Shown: positions 1-11,205 of the stretch, in pieces | Layout: every line of letters begins with the position of its first letter | How positions within the stretch are numbered: position 1 is the first letter of the stretch | IMG/VR virus record: IMGVR_UViG_2711768052_000003 | Coordinates: 1 to 11,205 of that record | Length of the DNA: 11,205 nt | Strand: one strand, 5' to 3' | DNA from: a virus | Taxonomy: Duplodnaviria; Heunggongvirae; Uroviricota; Caudoviricetes | Translations under genes and position numbers: made by a program | Notes under the pieces: model-generated | Database searches by the model: none | Seen by the model: only the letters and a program-made list of their open reading frames with translations | Told to the model about the DNA's origin: nothing

Positions 1-21
1 GTAAACCGAGGTTTTGGATAA
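1..21. other. Partial serine-invertase crossover site (gix/hix type), truncated by the window edge
   Basis: Positions 1-21 read GTAAACCGAGGTTTTGGATAA. This contains the half-site GGTTTTGGATAA and matches, as I recall it, the last 21 bp of the 26-bp Mu gixL site TTCCTGTAAACCGAGGTTTTGGATAA. It lies about 55 bp upstream of a Gin-family invertase gene, the usual position of the invertase-proximal site. Confidence 0.55.
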
Positions 22-75
22 TGGCCGTTTCCGGCCTGCATGGCATGATTTGCGCTTTTGGACGGGAGATTCAGC

Positions 76-675
76 GTGCTGATTGGCTATGTAAGGGTAT
101 CAACAAATGACCAGAATACAGACTTGCAACGAAACGCTCTTGTTTGTGCAGGATGCGAACAAATATTTGAAGATAAATTAAGCGGGACAAAGACAGACCG
201 ACCGGGATTAAAACGCGCTTTAAAGCGCCTTCAAAAAGGTGACACGCTGGTTGTCTGGAAACTGGATCGCCTCGGGCGAAGCATGAAACATCTGATTTCT
301 CTCGTCGGGGAACTACGGGAGCGAGGGATTAATTTTCGCAGTCTGACCGACAGCATAGATACATCTTCTCCAATGGGGCGTTTTTTCTTCCACGTGATGG
401 GTGCCCTGGCTGAAATGGAACGTGAATTAATTGTTGAACGTACACTGGCCGGACTGGCGGCAGCGCGCGCACGGGGGCGCACAGGCGGACGTCGACCGAA
501 GCTGACAAAAGAACAGCATGAGCAAATAGCAAGGCTAATCAAAAACGGGCACGACAGAAAACAACTGGCAATAATTTACGGCATTGGCACATCGACGATT
601 TATCGTTATCACCCTGTAGGCGATATACAGACTGAAGAAACAACCGGGCAGACTCAGGAAAATGAAAACCGCTAA
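76..675 (+). CDS. Site-specific serine DNA invertase, Gin/Pin/Hin/Cin family
   Basis: The translation MLIGYVRVSTNDQNTDLQRNAL...VVWKLDRLGRS...GINFRSLTDSIDTSS.MGRFFFHVMGALAEMERELI has the catalytic Ser at position 9, the resolvase/invertase core and a C-terminal HTH (IYGIGTSTIYRY). GGGAGA at 64-69 is a plausible RBS for GTG at 76. The track ORF begins at TTG 58, which I consider less likely. Confidence 0.9.
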   Translation: MLIGYVRVSTNDQNTDLQRNALVCAGCEQIFEDKLSGTKTDRPGLKRALKRLQKGDTLVVWKLDRLGRSMKHLISLVGELRERGINFRSLTDSIDTSSPMGRFFFHVMGALAEMERELIVERTLAGLAAARARGRTGGRRPKLTKEQHEQIARLIKNGHDRKQLAIIYGIGTSTIYRYHPVGDIQTEETTGQTQENENR

Positions 676-699
676 TCTGACCATTAGCGGTTTTTGTGT
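664..699. terminator. Bidirectional rho-independent terminator between the convergent invertase and gpU genes
   Basis: A 9-bp stem pairs ACCGCTAAT (668-676) with ATTAGCGGT (683-691) around the loop CTGACC. TTTTGTGT follows on the plus strand and an A-run (664-667) precedes it, giving a U-tract for the minus-strand transcript. It overlaps the invertase stop (673-675) and sits 5 bp from the gpU stop (704-706). Confidence 0.5.
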
Positions 700-703
700 A
701 AAA

Positions 704-1192
704 TCAGAACAGCCCTTTAACTGAACTGGCCGCGCTGTTAAGAGATGATGTCACCTTATCTTTGAAGCCGGACAGCATATCACTGAACGATGAGGATTGC
801 AGGCGCTCCCGCAAATCCTCATCACAGCGTTCAAGGGTCAGTGAAAATTCTATCTTTTTCGCCTTACCGTAGCGATCAAACTCGGAACGGGTCGTATTCG
901 TTTCAGTCAGCACATACATGCCGTAAATCTGCCCGACGCCATCAATCAGAGGCCAGGGTCGTCCTGTATACGCCTGCGTGGTCAGCAGCGACAGCGATAC
1001 TTCGCCACCTGTAATTTCAGGATAAAGCACACCAGAAAGAACGATGCGATCATCTCCTGCACCGATATACTGCCAGCTTGCTGAACGGTTAACGCGTTCA
1101 TTTTTCACATGCCGCCAGCTTTTGTTTTGCTGTAACTGCTGATGCGGCAGCGTGCGCAGCTCAAAAACAAACATGCCGTAGATCATCATCAT
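704..1192 (-). CDS. U: P2 gpU-like tail protein (tail terminator/completion)
   Basis: The translation MMMIYGMFVFELRTLPHQQL...WRH...VLSGVLYPEITGG...WPLIDGVGQIYGMYV fits the P2 gpU family pattern as I recall it. GAGGAG lies 8 nt upstream of ATG at 1192; the track start at 1198 would leave only a 2-nt spacer. Confidence 0.8.
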   Translation of the reverse strand: MMMIYGMFVFELRTLPHQQLQQNKSWRHVKNERVNRSASWQYIGAGDDRIVLSGVLYPEITGGEVSLSLLTTQAYTGRPWPLIDGVGQIYGMYVLTETNTTRSEFDRYGKAKKIEFSLTLERCDEDLRERLQSSSFSDMLSGFKDKVTSSLNSAASSVKGLF

Positions 1193-1204
1193 GGCCATGA
1201 CTCC

Positions 1205-4048
1205 TCAATCTTTATCGTAAAAACTGCCACGCCCGGCACGGGCGCGCCGTTCCATTTCTGCCCTGACCATTTCACCTACCAGTTTCGCAAGTTCGCGGGG
1301 ATTCTGCGTAACAACGTTATGCAGATGAACATGAATTTCACCGCCAAATCCGGAGGCAACCGGCTCCCGATTACGGGAAGCTGCAGGAACTGATGCCACT
1401 GGCGATCGTATGGCCTCCGCCACCGGGCGGGAGCTGGCCGCAACAACAGGGACCAGCGCCGGAGGCAGCGGAGCCGGGACCACGGGTGTGATATTAATTG
1501 CGGGGGCAGGCTTACTGACCTGCGCAATCTTCCGCTCCTGCCACTCCCCACGAACGGCAAGTGCGCGGGGCAGGTTCTTAAAGACAATATCGCCGGGGCC
1601 AATGCGTTTTTTCGTCTCATCAACCAGCTTACCTGTGTTATCAGCAATTTTGCTGAGTCTGCGCAGCGTACCGGTATTGCTGTCTGTGAGCGGTTTATTG
1701 TCTTTGGGGTTATCACCTCCGGTACCATTGCCATTTTCCACAGGCTTCGGCGGATTGATTTTCGCCAGGTCCCCCTGAAGCAAGGCAACCTTGTCCTGAA
1801 GAATGGCCGCACGCTGTGCGTCTTCGATTTTCTTGCGCGCCCTTTCCGCTTCATCCGGAAGGACGCCAAGTTTTTCAAGTATCCACGCCAGCGTATCCAG
1901 CAGCATTTTTGCAGGTGTCAGAACAAGCTGTAACGCACCGCCAAGAACGTTACCGAATATCTCGCCAGCACTGGTACATTTATCCAGCGTTTCCTTGCTG
2001 GACTCCATCGGTGACAGCAGCGATTTAAACCAGTTAAACACCTGGCTGATCCCGCTCCCGATTGCGTCAAAAACAGGACCAAACCGTTCAAAAGTTTCGC
2101 GCAACGGGGTCAGCCTTTCCATAATCCCGCTGAACACCCCGGCAAAAAATGCCCTGATGGGATCCCAGTATTTCCAGATAAGAACGGCAGCTCCGGCAAG
2201 CGCAGCCACGATAAGACCAACCGGACTGAACAACGCCCCGATAGCGCCTCCCAGCAAAGAAACGGACCCCGTCACCATTCCCCATAGTGCTGGCAGGACC
2301 CTGACAGCATTCATTGATCCGGTCAGGAGAGAAAAACCAAGACGCAGTTTTGCCAGCGGACCAGCAAGCACACCAATAGCCAGCGACAACGAGCCAACCG
2401 TTGCAGTCATTGCCAGCAACGCACCGCCTGCTATCAGTAGCTGGCGCGTCAGTGCCGGATGGGCCTGCGCCAGCGCCGTCACCCTTGATACCACCCGCGT
2501 GAGCCACTGCGTGACAGAACGCAGCGAACCGTCAATCAGATCTGCAATGCGGATGCGCAACCCTTCCCATGCACTGCCGAGTGATTTCAGATCGCCGTCA
2601 AGGTTGTTGGCCATAACCTTTGCTGTGCGTTCAGCCTCACCGCGCGCGCCTTCAAGTTCTTTTCTCAGTTTGGGTAAGGAACCGTCACCCGCTGCATCAA
2701 CGAGCGCCATAAACGATGTGAAAGCCTCTTCTCCGGCAATGTCCTTAAAGAACGATACCCGGTCAACTTCCCCGTATTTGCGGGTGGCTTTATAAAGGTC
2801 GGCCAGCACATCCTCCATCGGGCGCATTTTGCCCCCGGCATCCGAGACGGACACGCCCAGCTCTTTCAGAGCTTCTGCCGCCGCCTTTGGCGGTGATGCC
2901 AGACGAGCCAGGCTGGCACGCATTGCCGTCCCGGCATCACTCCCTCTGATGCCCATATTCGCCAGCACGCCAGCCATCGCTGCGGCCTGCTCCAGCGATA
3001 TTCCCAGCTTCCCCGCCACCGGACCTGCATATTTCATGGTTTCGCCCAGTGCGCGAAGGTCAGTGTTGGTACGGGTAAACGCTGCGGTGAGTGTGTCACC
3101 GACCCGGTCCATCTGGTCAGCAGAAAGGCCGAACTGCGTCAGGATATTTGAGCCAATATCTGCCGTCTCGCCGAGATCCATACCGCCAGCCGTTGCCATG
3201 CTCAGCACGCCGGGAAGCGCAGCCTGAATGGCCTGCGGAGTGAAGCCAGCCATTGCAAGAAATGCCTGTCCACTGGCGGCATCGCCTGCGGTGAACTGCG
3301 TTTCAGAGCCAAGTTTTAACGCCTGCTCGCGCAGCGCTTTAAACTGCGGGCTGTTCTGGTCGATTCGCGTCAGTGCCTGAACGCGGGACATCTCTTTGCC
3401 GAACCCGATCGCAGGCTGCAAAAAACGCCCGGCAGCATAGCCGCCCGCCGCTGCCGCACCAATTGCCAGCGCACCACCTGTTTTCAGTTTTTCCGCTGTT
3501 TCCTGCGCGCGCGAATACCGCTCACGCGCCCGCGTTACACGCGCAAGCGCCTGCCGTTCGCGTTCAAGCTGGTTGTTGTATTGTTCGGTGCGTCTGATGG
3601 CCTGCTGGATGGTGTTATCGCTGCCTGTCAGGGAAATGCCGTGGCGTTTCAGCTCTCCGCCAAGCTCCCGCATTTTCTGAATTTCCCGTGTGCGCGATTC
3701 ATTCAGGCGTTCAAGCCGGGTGCTTAACTGCTGCATCAGCTTTTGTTGTTTTTCGCTGAGCACTGTACCCGTGCGTTGTAACTGATTAAGGGCGTTAAGC
3801 TGGCGTCGTGCTTTCACGATACCCGCATCCGCTTTACTGACAGCGTCGCGGGCGCGCTCAAATGAACGCGCCTGACGCTCGAGATTTTTGATCGCCCCCT
3901 GCGTTCGCTGGATGGAGTCACCAAACTGCCCCATCAGGCGGCGTGCGTTTTCGGCAGGTCGGGTCAGCCTGTCAACGGCGCTGAAAGCGACCCGGATATC
4001 AAGAGTCTTCATTGTCTGCATTCCCGCTGCGAAGTGCCGCCCGCTCAC
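1205..4048 (-). CDS. T: Tail tape measure protein (P2 gpT-like)
   Basis: A 947-aa ORF with an Ala/Gly/Leu/Arg-rich, coiled-coil-like N-terminal half (repeated ERxRxA, QQL motifs) and a central hydrophobic segment sits between the E/E' chaperone genes and gpU. The start is uncertain: GTG at 4048, or ATG at 4021 or 4012. Confidence 0.8.
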   Translation of the reverse strand: MSGRHFAAGMQTMKTLDIRVAFSAVDRLTRPAENARRLMGQFGDSIQRTQGAIKNLERQARSFERARDAVSKADAGIVKARRQLNALNQLQRTGTVLSEKQQKLMQQLSTRLERLNESRTREIQKMRELGGELKRHGISLTGSDNTIQQAIRRTEQYNNQLERERQALARVTRARERYSRAQETAEKLKTGGALAIGAAAAGGYAAGRFLQPAIGFGKEMSRVQALTRIDQNSPQFKALREQALKLGSETQFTAGDAASGQAFLAMAGFTPQAIQAALPGVLSMATAGGMDLGETADIGSNILTQFGLSADQMDRVGDTLTAAFTRTNTDLRALGETMKYAGPVAGKLGISLEQAAAMAGVLANMGIRGSDAGTAMRASLARLASPPKAAAEALKELGVSVSDAGGKMRPMEDVLADLYKATRKYGEVDRVSFFKDIAGEEAFTSFMALVDAAGDGSLPKLRKELEGARGEAERTAKVMANNLDGDLKSLGSAWEGLRIRIADLIDGSLRSVTQWLTRVVSRVTALAQAHPALTRQLLIAGGALLAMTATVGSLSLAIGVLAGPLAKLRLGFSLLTGSMNAVRVLPALWGMVTGSVSLLGGAIGALFSPVGLIVAALAGAAVLIWKYWDPIRAFFAGVFSGIMERLTPLRETFERFGPVFDAIGSGISQVFNWFKSLLSPMESSKETLDKCTSAGEIFGNVLGGALQLVLTPAKMLLDTLAWILEKLGVLPDEAERARKKIEDAQRAAILQDKVALLQGDLAKINPPKPVENGNGTGGDNPKDNKPLTDSNTGTLRRLSKIADNTGKLVDETKKRIGPGDIVFKNLPRALAVRGEWQERKIAQVSKPAPAINITPVVPAPLPPALVPVVAASSRPVAEAIRSPVASVPAASRNREPVASGFGGEIHVHLHNVVTQNPRELAKLVGEMVRAEMERRARAGRGSFYDKD

Positions 4049-4528
4049 GCCAGCTAACCACTTCGCCGGGCGTCATCATGAAGATTTCGGCGGGCGACCA
4101 GTTAAAAATAACGGCAATATCTGCCACAAAGTCTTCTATGTGCTCAAAGCACACAACCGTGATCAGGCTTCCGTCGCCTGTTCGTTCTTCCCGCCAGAGT
4201 CCGCACCGCTCAAAAAATTTACGGCAACCACACATAACTGAATAAAGTCACGGGATGCCATTTTTTTGATCGTCACTTCATCCAGTCGCGGTGATGTCAC
4301 GCGTGACAGCAGCGTAAACATGGATTCCGCTTTCAGACTCAGCACATCAGACAGCGACAAATCTCGCAGAGATCCAGCCTGCTCAATAGCCCCGGTGATC
4401 TCCACATACGTGATTTTTTCGCCGCTTCGCTCAATTGGTTGGGTAAGTTTTACGCCACGCTCACTGGTTTCTTTCACAGTGTCAGTAACTACCGTGTTTT
4501 CGGTATCGATGTTTTTCGTCTCTTTCAT
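3999..4528 (-). CDS. E+E' fusion chaperone made by programmed -1 frameshift (inferred)
   Basis: The minus-strand slippery heptamer TTTTTTG (plus coordinates 4217-4211) lies inside E. The -1 frame stays open from there to 3999 (track ORF 3999-4235 is in the -1 frame relative to E) and overlaps the T start, as in the P2 E/E' and lambda G/GT arrangements. Confidence 0.55.
4163..4528 (-). CDS. E: Tail assembly chaperone gpE-like (short product)
   Basis: A 121-aa ORF lies between FII and T, the position of P2 E. AAAGGAG sits 7 nt upstream of ATG at 4528. A TTTTTTG slippery heptamer lies 18 codons before its stop. Confidence 0.75.
   Translation of the reverse strand: MKETKNIDTENTVVTDTVKETSERGVKLTQPIERSGEKITYVEITGAIEQAGSLRDLSLSDVLSLKAESMFTLLSRVTSPRLDEVTIKKMASRDFIQLCVVAVNFLSGADSGGKNEQATEA
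4211..4217 (-). other. T6G slippery heptamer for the E to E' -1 ribosomal frameshift
   Basis: The plus strand reads CAAAAAA at 4211-4217, which is TTTTTTG on the coding (minus) strand. Frame arithmetic places the downstream open frame at -1. Confidence 0.55.
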
Positions 4529-4582
4529 CAGGAAACTCCTTTCAGTCAGAGGCGACGCACTGCGCCGCCTGCATATTACTTA

Positions 4583-5095
4583 TCAGCCAAGCCCAAGCGC
4601 GGAACGGATGCGATCGGGCACAATGTCCTTGCCGTCCTTCCGGTAAATGAAGTTCAGCAGGTCAATCTCCCACAACGGGCGATCGTTAACACTCAGCTTG
4701 TAGTAGGTGTTTTTAATGGCATAAGTGTGTGATGTGGCTTCGCCCTGTTTGGCTTCCCCCATATCAATTTCCGTCACACGTCCGCGCATTTCGACTTCAT
4801 ACAGGTCGCTTTCTGCATCGGTGTAGTATTCACCCGCAAAACGCAGCAGTGTGCCGTCAATCGTGCCGCCATACTTAAGGAACAGCTCACGAACTGCGCC
4901 CCCCATGACAAAGCTCGCATCAAGCGCTGAGTCGTCCAGGCCGAGATCAATACTTACCGCCCCCATCATGCCACCACCCCGGTAGCTGTCGGTTTTGCGC
5001 GTCAGCTTAGGCAAAGTGACGGACGTCACCTTACCCACTTCGTTTTCACCATCCACAAACAGCGTAAAAAAGCGAAGATGTTTTGGCACAGCCAT
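4583..5095 (-). CDS. FII: Tail tube protein (P2 gpFII-like)
   Basis: A 170-aa ORF, MAVPKHLRFF...VTLPKLTRK...YRGGGM...IDLGLDD...LRFAGEY...VEMRGR...EIDMGE, has the size and motifs of the FII tube family. GGGAGG RBS precedes it, and its ATG overlaps the FI stop as TGATG (plus 5093-5097). Confidence 0.9.
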   Translation of the reverse strand: MAVPKHLRFFTLFVDGENEVGKVTSVTLPKLTRKTDSYRGGGMMGAVSIDLGLDDSALDASFVMGGAVRELFLKYGGTIDGTLLRFAGEYYTDAESDLYEVEMRGRVTEIDMGEAKQGEATSHTYAIKNTYYKLSVNDRPLWEIDLLNFIYRKDGKDIVPDRIRSALGLG

Positions 5096-6279
5096 CAGGC
5101 ACCTCCCAGCACCGCAAATGCGGGTTCAAAGTATTCATCAGTAAACGTCTGGTAAAGCTCCATGTCTTCCAGTGGCGGAACGGGCGTATATTTGTAGCGA
5201 ATACGCACACGCCCCTGACGTAAATCCGTGGTGCTGTTATCCACCACGTCATACCAGCACTCCGCGCCAATCAGTTTCCCGGCAGTCACCAGTGAATCCA
5301 GTTTTGCCCTGATGGCGCTGATAACATCCTTCACGTTCGCAGGCGTCAGTGGACTGTCGATGGTTTCAAACTGCGCTTCCGCAATTGAATCAGCCAGCAC
5401 CTGTGCGGTTCGGGTATACACCTCAAAAATGTAGGCGTTCGTTTCCGGTGTGCGGTTGCCCCAGAAGCGGAACCCGTTGCGACGAATAATGGTCGTGATT
5501 TCTTTGTTGTTGAGGCTGTTGGCATCGCTGTCTTCGGCCTGCAACGACCAGAACACATGCCTCGACATCCCCAGCACATTTTTAACCGGAACGTTGGACA
5601 GCGATTTGTGCCAGCCCTGCTCATGGTCAATGTACGCACGAAGGCCGCACGCATAAGCAGGCGCGGGGAACGTTTCGTTTTCGCCACTTTTCGGGTTGTA
5701 GGCGATGAAGTCCGGCCATAAGAGCATCACTTCACGTTCGTTGAATTTCTGGCGGTAGGTAATCGCTTCAGCCATCGTGTTACAGCCGTGACATGAGGCA
5801 TACACAAATGCGCGCAGTTTACCCGCAATCACGCACAGGGATTTTGTCACCGCCTCCGTGTCCAGCTCCGGCGCGGCCAGAATACGCGGACGGTATCCGA
5901 TGCTTTCATCCTGCTCTGCAACAAGCAGCGCATACATCCCCGTATAGCTGCCGTCATCCTCAGAACCACCGATAACCAGTTGATCCTGCGTCTTTTCGTC
6001 TTCTTCTTTGTGTTCAGCCACGCGAACGACGATCACCTTTGTGCTCACCTGGTCTGCGATGGCCTTAAGCGCACGATAAAGCGTCCCCGTTGTTCCGCAT
6101 TTTCCCAGCACGTCATTGACGCGGGTCAGCAGTGTGGGCTTGTTCAGCGGGAACAGCTTCGCGTCCGCATCATCCGCCGTTGCCACGATACCGATAACGC
6201 TGGAATCAACATCGTTAATCGCTGTTACCAGGTCGGTATTTTCCGTAACACGGGCACCATGAAAACGAGTTTCACTCAT
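5095..6279 (-). CDS. FI: Contractile tail sheath protein (P2 gpFI-like)
   Basis: A 394-aa ORF has motifs that match P2 FI as I recall it: FPLNKP, LRAFVYAS, WPDF, EQGWHKSLSNV, IRRNGFRFWGNRT, YTRTAQV and YKYTPVPPLE. AAGGGG RBS lies 8 nt upstream of ATG at 6279. Confidence 0.9.
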   Translation of the reverse strand: MSETRFHGARVTENTDLVTAINDVDSSVIGIVATADDADAKLFPLNKPTLLTRVNDVLGKCGTTGTLYRALKAIADQVSTKVIVVRVAEHKEEDEKTQDQLVIGGSEDDGSYTGMYALLVAEQDESIGYRPRILAAPELDTEAVTKSLCVIAGKLRAFVYASCHGCNTMAEAITYRQKFNEREVMLLWPDFIAYNPKSGENETFPAPAYACGLRAYIDHEQGWHKSLSNVPVKNVLGMSRHVFWSLQAEDSDANSLNNKEITTIIRRNGFRFWGNRTPETNAYIFEVYTRTAQVLADSIAEAQFETIDSPLTPANVKDVISAIRAKLDSLVTAGKLIGAECWYDVVDNSTTDLRQGRVRIRYKYTPVPPLEDMELYQTFTDEYFEPAFAVLGGA

Positions 6280-6436
6280 AGCTTCAGCCCCTTGTATCCG
6301 TTAAATGATTCGGCAACAATCATCACCCACCACGCGCGTAATCTCACCCCTGCGCCGTTCTCCCGCCACGGCGACAACAAAAAGCAGTAACCCCCTCCGC
6401 ACGCACATGCGACCATGCCACACAGGGAGGGAGCAG

Positions 6437-7546
6437 ATGACCGACACCACCATGCAATTGCTCAGTCAGGGCACAGACCCCGTGAAAATGCCGGATTTTG
6501 ATATTCTCGCCGAGGGTAAAACGCTGTCCGGCGTGGCAGAACGCCTGATGAGCCTGTCACTGACCGACAACCGGGGATTTGAGGCGGACCAGCTCACCAT
6601 CACGCTGGATGATGCCGATGGCCAGTTGCAGCTACCGCCACGGGGCGCGCGTCTGACGGTTCTCATTGGCTGGAAAGGGGAACCGCTGACAGAAAAAGGC
6701 ACTTACATTGTTGATGAAATCGCTCACGAAGGACCGCCGGACAGGCTGACTGTTTCAGCCAGAAGCGCAGATTTTCGGGATGAATTTAACGTTAAACGTG
6801 AGGTGTCCTGGCATGATGTGACCGTTGAGCGTGTGGTATCCGCCATCGCTCATCGGTATGGTCTGAAACCGCAAATCAGCGAAATGCTGATGGATATCGA
6901 AATCGACCACGCCGACCAGACCGAAGAAAGCGACATGTCCTTCCTTACGCGCATGGCGGAAATGCTGGGCGCAATCACCACGGTAAAAAGCGGTAATCTG
7001 TTATTCATCATGCCCGGAGGTGGCGTGAACGCGCAGGGCCAGCCGTTGCCCTCGTTCGCCATCACACGCAGCAGCGGCGATCGCCATCAGTTCCGCATTG
7101 CTGACCGCGAGGCGTATACGGGTGTACGCGCCTACTGGCTTGATCTTAATTACGGGAAAAAGAAAAAAGTCAGCGTGAAACGCCGCAAACCGCCAAAACC
7201 CAAAAAGGAGAAAAGCAGCAGCCGCGAAGGTGACTATATGGAAGGTGCGGAAGGCAACGTATTTGTGTTACGCAAGACTTATCAGAACGAGCAGGCAGCA
7301 AGACGCGCAGCGGCGGCAAAGTGGCAGCAGCTACAACGCGGAGCCGCATCATTTTCCATCACGCTGGCACGTGGACGCGCAGAACTCTACCCCGAAATGC
7401 ATGGCACGGTAACAGGATTTAAAAGCGAGATTGATAATCAGGACTGGATTATTGCAAAAGCCGAGCACACCATTGATAACAGCGGCTTTACCACGCAGCT
7501 TGAGCTTGAGGCAAAAATCCCGGAATGGATAGCAGAAACAGAGTGA
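6437..7546 (+). CDS. D: P2 gpD-like tail/baseplate hub protein (late control gene D family)
   Basis: The translation MTDTTMQLL...SLSLTDNRGFEADQLTITLDDADG...RSADFR...SWHD...FLTRMAE...ITRSSGDRHQFRIADREAYTGV...KKKK...EGDYMEGAEGNVF...QRGAASFSITLARGRAELYPE...FTTQLELEA agrees closely with my recollection of P2 gpD. GGGAGGGA RBS lies at 6425-6432. The track ORF extends to 6305 but has no RBS-supported start there. Confidence 0.85.
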   Translation: MTDTTMQLLSQGTDPVKMPDFDILAEGKTLSGVAERLMSLSLTDNRGFEADQLTITLDDADGQLQLPPRGARLTVLIGWKGEPLTEKGTYIVDEIAHEGPPDRLTVSARSADFRDEFNVKREVSWHDVTVERVVSAIAHRYGLKPQISEMLMDIEIDHADQTEESDMSFLTRMAEMLGAITTVKSGNLLFIMPGGGVNAQGQPLPSFAITRSSGDRHQFRIADREAYTGVRAYWLDLNYGKKKKVSVKRRKPPKPKKEKSSSREGDYMEGAEGNVFVLRKTYQNEQAARRAAAAKWQQLQRGAASFSITLARGRAELYPEMHGTVTGFKSEIDNQDWIIAKAEHTIDNSGFTTQLELEAKIPEWIAETE

Positions 7547-7934
7547 GCAATTTTGATACATTAGATTAAACATGGGCGCAACACTTACGACACAGAGTAA
7601 ACCTGATCTGCCAGTCACTTCTGCACCAAGAGCGAAAATTTATGACAGCGCTATGTGTTTATCTCCCCGAAAAGCTCAGTCAAATAGTAATTTGTCAAAT
7701 CCCCACTCAGTATCAATAGAGATAGTTGACCGAGTGTGCTCAAAGCCATACCTGCCACGATGAGCTTTGCATAACAGACTTGTTTTTTTAGGTGATTTTC
7801 GTTATAAATTTTCAGCGTTGCTTAGATGTTATGTGTTTATGCTCAATATGCAAATTTTGAGTTTTTTGTGGCTATATTATAACATTAATAGCAACATCTC
7901 TATGATTGCTTTATTTAAATGGATGAATTTGAAA

Positions 7935-10037
7935 ATGAGAGCATATCATAATGACCAACCTATACTAGGCGGTCAAAATGATCCAGACTTACTAAATAGA
8001 CTTACCTTTGCAAATAATTTGGCAAATATTTTACTATTAAATAACGACGATGATTGTTTCACTGTATCTATAGAGGCTGAGTGGGGATATGGTAAAACGT
8101 CAGTCATAAATCTTATAAAAAATGCCTTAAATGAAAAGGACTCCTTACCCATTATAATAGAATATAATCCATGGTTGGCTGGCCAACCTGAATCCTTGAT
8201 TCAAGATTTTTTATTGCAGTTTTCTTCACAACTAAATATTAAAGACAAATCAAAAGTTGCATTAAAAGTATCAAAAGAGCTAATTGCATACTCTAGCCTC
8301 TTTAGTGCTGCTAAACTTATCCCTGGAGCAGAACCATGGGCATCTATCATAGAAAAATCTCTTTCAAGATTTGGACATGCTACTAAAAAAATAGCTGAGT
8401 TAAAAAAACTTGATCTTTTAGATAGAAAAAAACAAGTGGCTAATGCGATAAAAAAAATAAAACATCCTATAATTGTAATAATTGATGACATTGATCGTTT
8501 AACACCCTCTGAGGCTTTTCAAGTTTTACGGTTAGTCAAAGCTGTTGCGAATTTCTCAGGCACTTCTTTTTTACTTGCATTTGATCCTAATTACCTAATT
8601 TCTGTGCTTGATAAAAATAACATTATAAATCCGTCAGAATATATTAATAAGATTGTTCAACTTCGAGTTTCACTTCCCGTAATTTCAGAAAGAGGACTGA
8701 ATGAAATCGCAAATTCAGAGCTTGAAAAACTAGGTGATAGTTTTTTAACTGATAAATTTGAAAAAGATCAAGAAAGATTAGATTGGATTTACCATAATTA
8801 TTTCAAGCAATTAATTAATAATCCAAGAGAGTTGAAAAGGTTTTTCAACCACTTGAGATTTACTTTAGAGCAAATTAAAGGTCAGGTGTGTTCTTCAGAT
8901 CTTTTTTCTTTATCTCTAATCGCAACCAAATCAAATTTAATTTATGAGCATATAAAGAATACTCCTGAAGCGTACATTGGGAATAGATTAACCATCAATA
9001 ATTTGTTAATGAATAAACATCAAGATATTATAAAGCATTATAGCCATGAACGATGCAATAAACTAAATATTTTTTCTCAACGAGAACGTACATTGATGCA
9101 GGGGCTATTAGAGTATATTTTCCCTCTTCTACGCCCCAATCAATCTTATCCTTATGATGTATCTGATTCAGATGCAGCAGGAAGAATTTCTGCCCCCCAA
9201 AGACTTCATATTGCCCTTCATTTTAAAACTCCAGTAGGATATATTTCCGATCATGACATTCTTCTTTTCATCGAAGGGAAAATTAATAGAGAAAAATTCC
9301 TTGAGGATGTGTTATCTCAAAATGCCGAGGAAAGATTTTTCGAAATGATGAATATTTATACAGACGCTTGTTGTAAAGTTGATAGTTTTAATATATTAAC
9401 GTGCATTTATGATAGATTTCTTTTCTCTCAAGAGTTAAAATCTTCATTAGAAAAAAACTATGGTCTCATTAGAGAAGATTCTTATAGAAGGATGTATTGG
9501 CTCACTGATAAAATTATATCTGAAAGTAGTGAGCAATATGAGCTAATAAAAAAAATTATTGGTCGATATGAGAATGCGCCACTTGGAGCAGAAGTACTAT
9601 ACAACGTACGAAACTCAAGTAATATACAGATTAATAAAGATCAGATTGTTGAACTTGAGAATGTCTTCAAAGAAACAGCTACTATTGCTTTAAATAAAAA
9701 AATATTTTTTGACTATCATCTAGAATCAAATATATTTTTCGAATTAAAGAGAATCTCTGTTGAATTCACATCAGAATTTCTTGCTTCCATCTTATCAGAA
9801 GATGGCATAATTAGATTGTGTGAAATTATTGGTGAAACTGGTAGAGATTCAACGAATGGCCCTTATGTTATTTTTGACGAACATTATTTTGGGGAAATAC
9901 TTGATGTAGATGAGGTTAGAAATAAAGCTAAAAACATAGATATTTCAAAGCATCCGACTCGCATTCAAGCTGTACTTAAGAGCATTGCAGATGGAAAAAA
10001 ATATTATTTAAGAGATGCAACAATTAGCTTAAAATAG
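7935..10037 (+). CDS. KAP-family P-loop NTPase; candidate anti-phage/exclusion protein
   Basis: Walker A is AEWGYGKTS (8082-8102), followed by the KAP-typical NPW (IIIEYNPW), Walker B IIVIIDDIDRL (8472-8501), LLAFD, and an NPRELKRFFN motif (8820-8849). About 300 C-terminal residues carry no motif I recognise. The gene is strongly AT-rich against GC-rich flanks. The start is ambiguous: in-frame ATGs at 7902, 7923 and 7935, none with a strong SD (GGA 9 nt before 7935); the track ORF begins at TTG 7767. Confidence 0.7.
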   Translation: MRAYHNDQPILGGQNDPDLLNRLTFANNLANILLLNNDDDCFTVSIEAEWGYGKTSVINLIKNALNEKDSLPIIIEYNPWLAGQPESLIQDFLLQFSSQLNIKDKSKVALKVSKELIAYSSLFSAAKLIPGAEPWASIIEKSLSRFGHATKKIAELKKLDLLDRKKQVANAIKKIKHPIIVIIDDIDRLTPSEAFQVLRLVKAVANFSGTSFLLAFDPNYLISVLDKNNIINPSEYINKIVQLRVSLPVISERGLNEIANSELEKLGDSFLTDKFEKDQERLDWIYHNYFKQLINNPRELKRFFNHLRFTLEQIKGQVCSSDLFSLSLIATKSNLIYEHIKNTPEAYIGNRLTINNLLMNKHQDIIKHYSHERCNKLNIFSQRERTLMQGLLEYIFPLLRPNQSYPYDVSDSDAAGRISAPQRLHIALHFKTPVGYISDHDILLFIEGKINREKFLEDVLSQNAEERFFEMMNIYTDACCKVDSFNILTCIYDRFLFSQELKSSLEKNYGLIREDSYRRMYWLTDKIISESSEQYELIKKIIGRYENAPLGAEVLYNVRNSSNIQINKDQIVELENVFKETATIALNKKIFFDYHLESNIFFELKRISVEFTSEFLASILSEDGIIRLCEIIGETGRDSTNGPYVIFDEHYFGEILDVDEVRNKAKNIDISKHPTRIQAVLKSIADGKKYYLRDATISLK

Positions 10038-10262
10038 TGATAACAGGTGATTTATTTTATTATTTGAAGTGATGAAATATACTCTTCACTACATTTAATG
10101 CACTGATTATCAAATAGAGATAGGTGTCGCATGAAAGAGACTATTGATGTGGCACCGGTAGTCTCATTTCCGACATTACTCCAGAAGAGGTGATTCGTTA
10201 TTAATAGATAATTTTAACCACTTCGCTAGACGTATCATTTTTCGTTTGTTGCTCAAAACTCA

Positions 10263-10291
10263 TTGGCAGTTAAAGTCTGAACCAGTACAAC
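10263..10291 (+). promoter_or_regulatory. Putative sigma70-type promoter for ogr
   Basis: TTGGCA (10263-10268), a 17-bp spacer, then TACAAC (10286-10291), about 40 bp upstream of the ogr ATG. This is a by-eye match only. Confidence 0.25.
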
Positions 10292-10328
10292 TTAGAATGG
10301 CACCAACATTACGTTAAGGGAGGTCGCT

Positions 10329-10589
10329 ATGTTCCGTTGTCCGCTTTGTGGCGCATCTGCCCGTATCCGCACCAGTCGTCCGGAAAATGATTCAAACACC
10401 GTGCGGCAAAAGTATTACCAGTGTAACAATCTGGAATGCGGCGTATGCTTCTCAACACTGGAAGCTTTCCATAAATTCACATCGAAACACGCCTCCGGCG
10501 TTCACTCTTCAGAAGGTATCCCGTGGCATGAGCTGCCAGCTTCACACAGGGGAAACAATCAGATGAGTTTGCCTTTGCCTCAGAATTAA
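10329..10589 (+). CDS. ogr: Ogr/Delta-family zinc-finger late transcription activator
   Basis: The N-terminus MFRCPLCGASARIRTSR...YYQCNNLECGVCFSTLE has the CxxC...CxxxxC arrangement and resembles P2 Ogr as I recall it (MFHCPLC...RTSR...YHQC.N..C...F). AAGGGAGG RBS lies at 10316-10323. Confidence 0.85.
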   Translation: MFRCPLCGASARIRTSRPENDSNTVRQKYYQCNNLECGVCFSTLEAFHKFTSKHASGVHSSEGIPWHELPASHRGNNQMSLPLPQN

Positions 10590-10649
10590 CAGGCAGAATT
10601 GCCGGAGCAACAAAAAAGCGATAGATTACGCGCGGGTGCCTTTCGGCTG

Positions 10650-10862
10650 ATGGTCGGAGGGAATACCCGAAGGCCAGATGTGGAAAGGCCCCGGAAAACA
10701 TCTCTGTTTAACCGAGGCCCTAACCGCATTACCTTGACAAGTGAAAGGTTAGCGCCTCTCCGGAAAAGGAGCAAGTGCTATGTCGCAAAAATCGCTTACG
10801 GCCATCACGTTCTGTGTGACGGCAATCCTCATCATCTGGATGTTGCACGGTTCGCTGTGTGA
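10650..10862 (+). CDS. Possible mok-like overlapping leader ORF of the hok locus
   Basis: A 70-codon frame from ATG 10650 overlaps the 5' two-thirds of the hok-like ORF in another frame and ends inside it, as mok does in hok/sok loci. It has no strong SD, and the track ORF begins at TTG 10599. Confidence 0.3.
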   Translation: MVGGNTRRPDVERPRKTSLFNRGPNRITLTSERLAPLRKRSKCYVAKIAYGHHVLCDGNPHHLDVARFAV

Positions 10863-10920
10863 AATACGGATGAGCTTCTGGGGAGCGGAGTTTGCGGCGT
10901 TCTTACAGTGTAAGCAGTAA
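10780..10920 (+). CDS. Hok/Gef-family type I toxin (small membrane peptide)
   Basis: A 46-aa ORF, MSQKSLTAITFCVTAILIIWMLHGSLCEIRMSFWGAEFAAFLQCKQ, has an N-terminal hydrophobic helix and the SLCEIR...E.AAF motif, which aligns without gaps to Hok (…[21 protein letters not shown]…) and HokA as I recall them. AAAGGAG RBS at 10765-10771. It is below the length cutoff of the supplied ORF track. Confidence 0.7.
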   Translation: MSQKSLTAITFCVTAILIIWMLHGSLCEIRMSFWGAEFAAFLQCKQ

Positions 10921-11008
10921 GGAAACCGCGACGGGGGAGCTATCCCCCGTCAATCGGTTGCCAAGGTAGGGCCGGATAAGGCACCCTATCTCACAGATAT
11001 GAACAACA

Positions 11009-11041
11009 AACCCGCAGCGTAAAAACTGCGGGTTTTCTTTT
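11009..11041 (+). terminator. Rho-independent terminator, likely the 3' end of the hok-like transcript
   Basis: Stem ACCCGCAG (11009-11016), loop CGTAAAAA, stem CTGCGGGT (11025-11032), followed by TTTCTTTTT. Confidence 0.55.
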
Positions 11042-11205
11042 TGGTGCCCTCACCGACTTGAAACAGTGATCAGACTATAAGACAAAGCCCGCAATGTAGC
11101 GGGCTTACTCCCCTCACCCTACACTGAATGTGGACACACAGTGGAACGAAGAGGCATAAGATATTATAAATCAATCAGTTATTGAAAGAAAAAAGGCCGC
11201 AGAGC

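Follow-up and report, generated by a model that had tools for sequence, protein, structure and literature searches.

An 11,205-nt stretch of viral DNA (Duplodnaviria; Heunggongvirae; Uroviricota; Caudoviricetes; positions 1 to 11,205 of IMG/VR virus record IMGVR_UViG_2711768052_000003), referred to here in its whole length as the window, carries a gene for a 700-residue KAP-family P-loop NTPase in an AT-rich insert between phage tail gene D and the late-gene activator gene ogr. The explanation that we favor, with moderate confidence, is that this prophage cargo gene provides an anti-phage defense that consists of one protein, needs no partner, and spreads horizontally. Its placement as cargo is far beyond chance, because the same 700-residue protein recurs in the same place on many contigs (82 blocks of the contig collection) and because both halves of the protein are under purifying selection. 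In all contexts examined, which are mobile or variable throughout, the gene stands alone, and its conserved NTPase half is followed by a faster-evolving C-terminal half that is predicted to form a helical-repeat solenoid.

NTPase half and start codon of the KAP protein

The N-terminal half matches Pfam KAP_NTPase (PF07693) at residues 24 to 310 (E 6.1e-47; 160.7 bits against a cut-off of 20), which spans profile positions 3 to 289 of 293. The original prediction had recognized a KAP signature from four motifs in the right order, and AEWGYGKTS, NPW (residues 78 to 80), IIVIIDDIDRL, and NPRELKR are indeed all present. Both nucleotide-binding patterns are intact, the Walker A pattern GxxGxGK[ST] in GYGKTS (residues 51 to 56) and the Walker B pattern hhhhDDhDR in IIVIIDDIDR (residues 179 to 188), and across 64 homologues the core residues of the motifs are invariant, while flanking motif positions vary (Table 1).

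The interval between Walker A and Walker B holds a second strongly conserved element, a moderately hydrophobic helix-turn-helix at residues 117 to 141, within which Y119, S120, L122, F123, A126, K127, L128, P130, E133, P134, W135, A136, S137, and K141 are invariant in the same 64 homologues. These residues overlap one of the more hydrophobic 19-residue windows of the protein, which is still below transmembrane level. No transmembrane helix was found in the KAP protein, for which the top 19-residue Kyte-Doolittle mean of 1.27 falls below transmembrane level; PifA of plasmid F gives the same value. Many members of the KAP family have transmembrane helices within or beside the NTPase domain, but such an insertion is not obligatory, since the founding member, PifA, lacks one (PMC13001434).

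The open frame runs from 7767 (TTG) to 10037, and the ATG at 7935 yields 700 amino acids. A start at 7935 is supported because the homologue consensus opens with MGKYHNDQ at this position, because the aATGGA before the ATG is conserved (Table 1), and because an identical 700-residue protein is on record (P0001). The start at about 7902 chosen by PGAP was rejected as not conserved among homologues.

A full-length AlphaFold2 model was weaker than that of the C-terminal half, with a mean predicted local distance difference test score (pLDDT) of 68.6 and low confidence at residues 125 to 159. RdrA, ORC, and STAND ATPases were its best Foldseek matches, but the TM-scores (about 0.2) were weak.

C-terminal half: fold, architecture, and selection

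The C-terminal half had been proposed to be a sensor or an effector. A fold search of its model returned an all-helical HEAT/ARM-like solenoid and no enzyme or catalytic fold; the first part of the proposal thus agrees with the predicted helical-repeat fold, which is sensor-like, and the second found no counterpart. A sequence profile search of the PDB gave no relative below E 0.6. When a profile of residues 345 to 700 was searched against 1.84 billion cluster representatives, only 95 proteins matched, 42 of which are at least 600 amino acids long and carry the domain from about residue 345 on. By a simple pattern search, 41 of these 42 have a Walker B motif N-terminal to the domain and 28 also have a Walker A motif; the domain has therefore been seen only in this NTPase-fused architecture.

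Comparison with the homologue of E. coli 186-type prophages showed 85% identity and a ratio of nonsynonymous to synonymous substitution rates (dN/dS) of 0.09 for the N-terminal half and 65% identity and a dN/dS of 0.29 for the C-terminal half. The C-terminal half thus diverges about 2.7 times faster, and both halves are constrained. Such a contrast would be expected if a conserved motor were coupled to a domain that confers specificity.

Relationship to PifA

PifA of plasmid F mediates an abortive exclusion of T7 that is triggered by gp1.2 or gp10 and accompanied by membrane leakage. The original prediction related the KAP protein to it, and the best PADLOC match is the PifA model (E 1.2e-64), through the N-terminal half of the protein. 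F-plasmid PifA, taken from an IncF plasmid where it lies directly after pifC, aligned by BLASTP with 25% identity (E 5e-20) at residues 26 to 356 of the KAP protein, with no match beyond. Comparison of the two family profiles gave a 99.8% probability over 668 columns, with the NTPase half driving the score.

More sensitive comparisons suggest that the likeness may extend further. An iterated C-terminal profile built from all 95 representatives matched PifA residues 551 to 733 (E 7e-9 for a single comparison), and a distant member, P0200, was independently linked to the PifA C-terminus (E 1.2e-4). Faint colinear similarity to PifA is therefore detectable in the last ∼170 residues, and none is detectable at residues ∼350 to 530. 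The KAP protein is not a plain PifA orthologue: the C-terminal halves cannot be aligned by BLASTP or the PADLOC model, and the faint colinear signal appears by profile methods only. The two are distinct families that probably share a remote full-length ancestor.

Family distribution and genomic settings

A database search returned 428 proteins at E ≤0.001. The best 120 of the 428 are nearly all 700 to 713 amino acids long, with 63 to 76% full-length identity, and come from E. coli, Salmonella, Enterobacter, Klebsiella, Yersinia, Serratia, Vibrio, Aeromonas, Shewanella, and relatives; the family is compact and conserved over its full length of ∼707 residues. It is also sparse: about 27 of 185,579 species-representative genomes carry a close member (≥36% identity, several of the matches being partial), and among 72,556 plasmids (PLSDB) there was no close homologue, the best match having 27% identity.

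Homologues were expected to lie outside housekeeping contexts if the gene is cargo, and they occupy prophage hotspots, a plasmid-like region, and small islets. A 74%-identical homologue lies in the gpA/DinI-portal hotspot of P2/186-like prophages of E. coli, and a 64%-identical one is the sole gene of the gpA-portal hotspot in Serratia; experiments have shown this hotspot to harbor many anti-phage systems (PMC9122126, PMC9519451). A lambdoid prophage provides a third kind of accessory phage region, with a 59%-identical member (L037 6944-9124, IMGVR_UViG_3300022879_000179) in the interval between O/P and antiterminator Q and a DUF6338 gene on the Q side. In Shewanella an identical protein occurs both in a plasmid-like ParAB/RelE/Tn3 neighborhood and in a chromosomal islet, and in V. 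cholerae a family member forms a lone islet. Of the upstream sequence, the gene keeps only the ∼30 to 50 nt next to its start codon from one setting to another. Because partners differ or are missing at each place, the gene appears to work alone, in agreement with the original view of a single gene without a partner.

Behind the KAP homologue in the gpA-portal hotspot, most 186-type prophages of E. coli carry a RES-domain gene (384 amino acids, L009-L012 8642-9796); in strain CT29, IS903, a hypothetical gene, and a HIRAN-domain gene follow instead. The RES gene probably represents an independent system that happens to share the site.

KAP_NTPase appears at 0.2 to 0.7% in the supplementary Pfam tables of PMC13586616, which cover non-core, non-defense P2 genes and intergenic open reading frames (ORFs). 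Because it sits there among non-defense genes, current annotation tools seem to miss such genes as defense.

The D-ogr interval as a variable cargo site

The insert has a GC content of 32.4% and the KAP ORF one of 31.2%, against 53.9% for the remainder of the window. It starts exactly after the D stop codon, where phage P88 has a 27-nt spacer followed by the ogr ribosome-binding region, so the description of the gene as AT-rich cargo between D and ogr holds.

Whether D-ogr is a variable site, as had been suggested, was assessed with a query of D, insert, ogr, and hok (window positions 6437 to 11000), which matched 1,653 of 5,426 complete E. coli genomes; 60 records were taken evenly along the ranking. 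Both flanks were joined in 38 of the 60, and these divided equally into 19 empty sites (spacing of ∼1,815 to 1,820 bp) and 19 occupied ones, with at least nine insert sizes. D-ogr is therefore a real variable cargo site, filled in about half of this E. coli sample. Its sampled cargoes are one gene each, on either strand, and include insertion sequences as well; five of the genes, listed in Table 1, could be further defense or toxin candidates. The KAP allele is rare, being present in 3 of the 5,426 complete genomes.

Unrelated cargoes share related insert ends (L004, L025-L029), with left ends of the form GCAAyTTAGA..ATTAgCTCA and right ends of the form ..GCTCAAAAC..CAGTTGGAGTnTGAGcc..ACAACTTAGAATAGCG. 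In addition, AACTTAGA forms a direct repeat at both insert ends and is present as a single copy in the empty P88 site (L003 8133-8159). The related ends and the direct repeats suggest that cassettes are exchanged inside a conserved frame or that deletion occurs between the repeats. The right end also contains a promoter-like pair, TTAAAG (10270 to 10275) and TAGAAT (10293 to 10298), separated by a 17-nt spacer, which probably serves ogr.

Besides the KAP ORF, no further credible gene was found in the insert. A 63-residue ORF (7572 to 7763) was considered as a partner gene and rejected; it has no conserved counterpart, and the upstream 390 nt as a whole do not accompany the KAP gene elsewhere. 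Within this upstream region, the minus-strand translation of positions 7691 to 7726, TISIDTEWGFDK, resembles TVSIEAEWGYGK of the KAP protein. This stretch may be what is left of an inverted KAP copy, may pair within the 5' leader, or may be due to chance. A terminator scan found none.

Source prophage and flanking genes

The window is the right arm of a P88-like E. coli prophage (Peduoviridae, genus Xuanwuvirus). Phage P88 aligns with 74% of the window (97% identity), only the middle stretch being without a P88 counterpart, and in matching E. coli chromosomes ihfA adjoins the prophage end. The minus-strand FI-FII-E-T-U block, together with D and ogr on the plus strand, is unlike the gene order of P2. 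An assembly or inversion artifact was ruled out as the cause, since phage P88 natively has the same order as the window.

Gene D is shown in several RefSeq/PGAP genomes as a shortened 801-bp "VgrG/Pvc8 family" gene with a small opposite-strand pseudogene. The full 1,110-bp frame is open in the window, and at least one other genome carries the same full-length annotation; the difference looks like annotation inconsistency rather than mutation. An Rfam scan of the window at gathering thresholds matched no RNA family, including no Sok-type antisense RNA near the hok/gef-like ORF.

Table 1. Positions of the features discussed; coordinates refer to the window unless a comparison locus (L number) is given
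Feature	Position	Strand	Basis or remarks
Gin-like serine invertase	58-675	+	92-97% identity to Mu/D108 gin over first ∼450 nt
Tail genes U, T, E, FII, FI	704-6279	-	Adjoin the Gin-like invertase
Tail gene D (left anchor)	6437-7546	+	Stop codon 7544-7546; Pfam Phage_GPD, phrog_52; 369-residue D called at identical loci
Foreign AT-rich insert, ∼2.74 kb	7547-10288		P88 matches both sides and lacks this stretch
Insert left end, with degenerate AACTTAGA repeat copy	7547-7610		Sequence related to the left ends found with other cargoes of the site (alignment of insert ends from six different cargoes)
36-nt stretch, 78% reverse-complementary to Walker A codons 8061-8096	7691-7726	-	Inverted repeat; pairwise blastn E 6.6e-4
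Conserved translation-initiation region	7918-7934	+	aATGGA 8-9 nt before ATG; kept in all homologues examined (E. coli, Serratia, Vibrio, Shewanella)
KAP-family NTPase gene, 700 amino acids plus stop	7935-10037	+	ORF calling, Pfam, PADLOC, identical database protein
N-terminal KAP P-loop NTPase half, residues 1-344	7935-8966	+	Pfam, PADLOC PifA model, PifA identity
Walker A AEWGYGKTS, residues 48-56	8076-8102	+	W50, G51, G53, K54, T55, S56 invariant in 64 homologues
Helix-turn-helix, residues 117-141 (LIAYSSLFSAAKLIPGAEPWASIIEK)	8283-8357	+	Moderately hydrophobic; strong conservation
Walker B IIVIIDDIDRL, residues 179-189	8469-8501	+	I183, D184, D185, I186, D187, R188, L189 invariant in 64 homologues
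NPRELKR, residues 296-302	8820-8840	+	P297, R298, L300, K301, R302 invariant in 64 homologues; aligns with PifA TPREI
C-terminal half, residues 345-700	8967-10034	+	All-helical HEAT/ARM-like solenoid; likely sensor domain (predicted)
Insert right end, common to other cargoes	10219-10298	+	Insert-end alignment; AACTTAGAAT repeat at 10289-10298
ogr late-gene activator (right anchor)	10329-10589	+	Pfam Ogr_Delta E 5e-14; named ogr in matching genomes
hok/gef-like toxin ORF, 46 amino acids	10780-10920	+	Downstream of ogr, just inside prophage end
D-ogr cargo: PIN_4 protein, 500 amino acids	L025 1436-2938		
D-ogr cargo: DUF2971 protein, 260 amino acids	L026 1333-2118		Matches PADLOC candidate PDC-S31
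D-ogr cargo: SEC-C-motif protein, 379 amino acids	L027 1610-2749		
D-ogr cargo: ParA-like ATPase, 351 amino acids	L028 1360-2418		
D-ogr cargo: protein with sub-threshold HEPN match, 339 amino acids	L029 1331-2353		HEPN_RiboL-PSP-like
Shortened D annotation	L001 8147-9000; L025, L026, L028, L029 357-1210		Full-length annotation: L027 101-1210

Possible function and mechanism

If the KAP protein is a defense, the C-terminal solenoid (residues 345 to 700) would bind a protein or complex of the infecting phage. This binding would switch the N-terminal NTPase, in which ATP binding or hydrolysis would bring about a conformational change or oligomerization in the fashion of STAND ATPases, ORC, and RdrA. 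The activated protein may then halt infection in the manner of PifA, by impairing the inner membrane or the energy supply of the cell, with abortive infection as the result. A PifA-like output is favored because no effector is recognizable and PifA is the nearest characterized relative. This output may act through the invariant hydrophobic helix-turn-helix at residues 117 to 141, a candidate because it is located where KAP transmembrane segments reportedly insert; Aravind et al. 2004, as cited in PMC13552941, placed those segments within the NTPase domain.

Several observations weigh against the favored explanation. Regarding mechanism, no nuclease, protease, TIR, or pore domain was recognized in the KAP protein, so the output step is a guess; EF_KAP, a KAP NTPase that protects as a single gene, was reported to be non-abortive and protective at high multiplicity of infection (PMC13552941), and KAP proteins therefore need not act abortively. 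The tie to PifA is uneven, since the PADLOC model match covers only the first half (positions 4 to 353 of 720) and the C-terminal halves alone gave an hhalign probability of 24% (E 8.5e-4; 163 colinear columns at the extreme C-terminus), and AlphaFold2 confidence was only moderate for the NTPase half. The validated KAP defense Reve is unrelated to the KAP protein beyond Walker A, and the literature yielded no published phage-protection test of the present family. As to setting, there is no validated defense gene among the other D-ogr cargoes, the sole PADLOC match being the DUF2971 protein (candidate PDC-S31); D-ogr is for that reason established as a cargo hotspot and not yet as a defense hotspot. 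A tblastn search of 50,697 deposited phage genomes found no homologue, which limits the evidence to prophage regions, and scanning did not single out a promoter (14 promoter-like sites, 14.5 being expected in shuffled sequence), which leaves expression in the lysogen unsupported.

Alternatively, the gene could be a defense that does not act like PifA and instead, once the phage has been sensed, blocks replication directly or drains ATP by hydrolyzing it in a runaway manner, with no membrane lesion and without obligatory cell death. We regard this as rather unlikely, while placing it ahead of the remaining alternatives. It shares the evidence of context, architecture, and selection with a PifA-like defense, and a protein with neither a transmembrane helix nor a pore-like domain is in keeping with it, as are the non-abortive action of EF_KAP (PMC13552941) and the ATP turnover without membrane damage of Tmn (PMC13001434). 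Both of those proteins, however, have transmembrane helices and the KAP protein has none, and its closest characterized relative by sequence is PifA, a membrane-leakage protein.

Ranking lower, and unlikely in our judgment, is an accessory role outside general phage defense: the gene could act against rival mobile elements (P2-like phages, P4-type satellites, or plasmids), or it could be a non-immune fitness gene that regulates a membrane complex. It is prophage cargo, and systems of the P2 hotspot can hit related P2-like phages (PMC9122126); the same hotspot carries partly non-defensive cargo, such as cytolethal distending toxin (PMC9122126), and the other D-ogr cargoes are uncharacterized. 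KAP NTPases were, moreover, first proposed as regulators of membrane complexes, according to the citation of Aravind 2004 in PMC13552941. Yet the carriers are diverse, comprising P88-like, 186-like, and lambdoid prophages, a plasmid-like region, and chromosomal islets in Enterobacterales, Vibrio, Aeromonas, and Shewanella, and because the same gene rides such different carriers, a function tied to the biology of one of them is unlikely; an arms race would also be in line with the faster evolution of the C-terminal half. An inactive or decaying passenger gene, to which the rarity of the allele, the inverted-KAP-like relic upstream, and the failure to find a clear promoter or terminator might point, is essentially excluded by the intact 700-residue frame, the invariant core motif residues, the dN/dS of 0.09 to 0.29, the identical protein in 82 contig blocks, and full-length conservation across genera.

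For the anti-phage defense that we favor, a more ambitious version would unite PifA and this family in one superfamily of effector-less KAP immune sensors, in which the hairpins at residues 117 to 141 are the killing element: sensing of a phage protein through the solenoid would lead to ATP-driven oligomerization that pushes them into the inner membrane. This is a speculative idea to which we give little credence; if true, it would account for the membrane leakage in F-mediated T7 exclusion.

Should the gene prove active, it would amount to an immune module of one compact gene, able to travel on its own between a plasmid-like region, chromosomal islets, and three or more types of prophage hotspot across the Gammaproteobacteria. 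To our knowledge, the mechanism of PifA is still unsolved after decades. A second family that is soluble and well conserved and has a confidently modeled sensor-like domain may offer a tractable route to how an effector-less KAP NTPase arrests a phage. The D-ogr interval, for its part, is a busy single-gene cargo site of P88-like prophages, and with several nuclease-flavored cargoes (PIN, HEPN-like, and DUF2971) it could be a cheap hunting ground for defense genes. None of these findings overturns current ideas.

Comparison with known systems

Among multigene or more distant systems, QatABCD has a KAP-type ATPase, QatA, to which the KAP protein is weakly similar (E 3e-12) in parts of the NTPase domain only, as it is to the PADLOC candidate PDC-S20 (E 3e-20). 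The NCBIfam QatA model gave 44 bits against a cut-off of 600, and D and ogr stand where QatB, QatC, and QatD would be neighbors. STAND/Avs-type NTPases and RdrA of RADAR share with the predicted structure the succession of a P-loop switch ATPase and a helical-repeat domain that may be a sensor. On the other side, the KAP protein has no N-terminal effector domain, the TM-scores are low, as given above, and KAP is a separate NTPase family. In Tmn, ATP turnover rises, and ATP falls with plasmolysis, without depolarization or membrane damage (PMC13001434).

EF_KAP and three KAP NTPase fusions from gut metagenomes give single-gene phage protection that requires both Walker B and the C-terminal region (PMC13552941). 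Compared by description, EF_KAP and its group resemble the KAP protein in joining a KAP NTPase to a C-terminal region of ∼300 residues of unassigned function and differ in a location beside small serine recombinases; EF_KAP itself also has two predicted transmembrane helices and a Gram-positive origin. Reve (pFD425), a lone KAP gene from a P4 satellite hotspot, strongly protects E. coli against Drexlerviridae (PMC13586616; bioRxiv 10.64898/2026.02.27.708500). In common with the KAP gene, it stands by itself at a P2/P4-system hotspot of E. coli, carries a KAP/AAA_22 annotation, and has ORC-like Foldseek matches; unlike it, Reve has 586 amino acids and resides in a satellite rather than a phage. 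Identity of the two was rejected after translation of the ORF from Dataset E1 of the preprint (BLASTP E 0.2, with similarity at Walker A only; ∼3 bits with the family profile), and the conserved DNA k-mers of the family were not found in the preprint supplement.

PifA remains the closest counterpart. Both proteins are encoded by lone, mobile-element-borne genes, are 700 to 741 amino acids long, have an N-terminal KAP NTPase and no transmembrane helices, and share Walker A, Walker B, and the (N/T)PRE(L/I) motif. They differ in carrier, a conjugative plasmid for PifA and a prophage here, and in neighborhood, since pifC precedes pifA on F-type plasmids, whereas tail gene D lies upstream here and there is no pifC-like ORF. 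PifA causes membrane leakage, as stated in PMC13001434 with reference to Cheng 2004 and Schmitt 1991. A lone KAP NTPase with an uncharacterized C-terminal region, carried as anti-phage cargo in P2/P4-type hotspots, is thus a kind of system already published in PifA, EF_KAP, and Reve, and by its sequence relationships the KAP cargo of the present prophage is best placed as a candidate of that kind, in a family of its own that is remotely tied to PifA.

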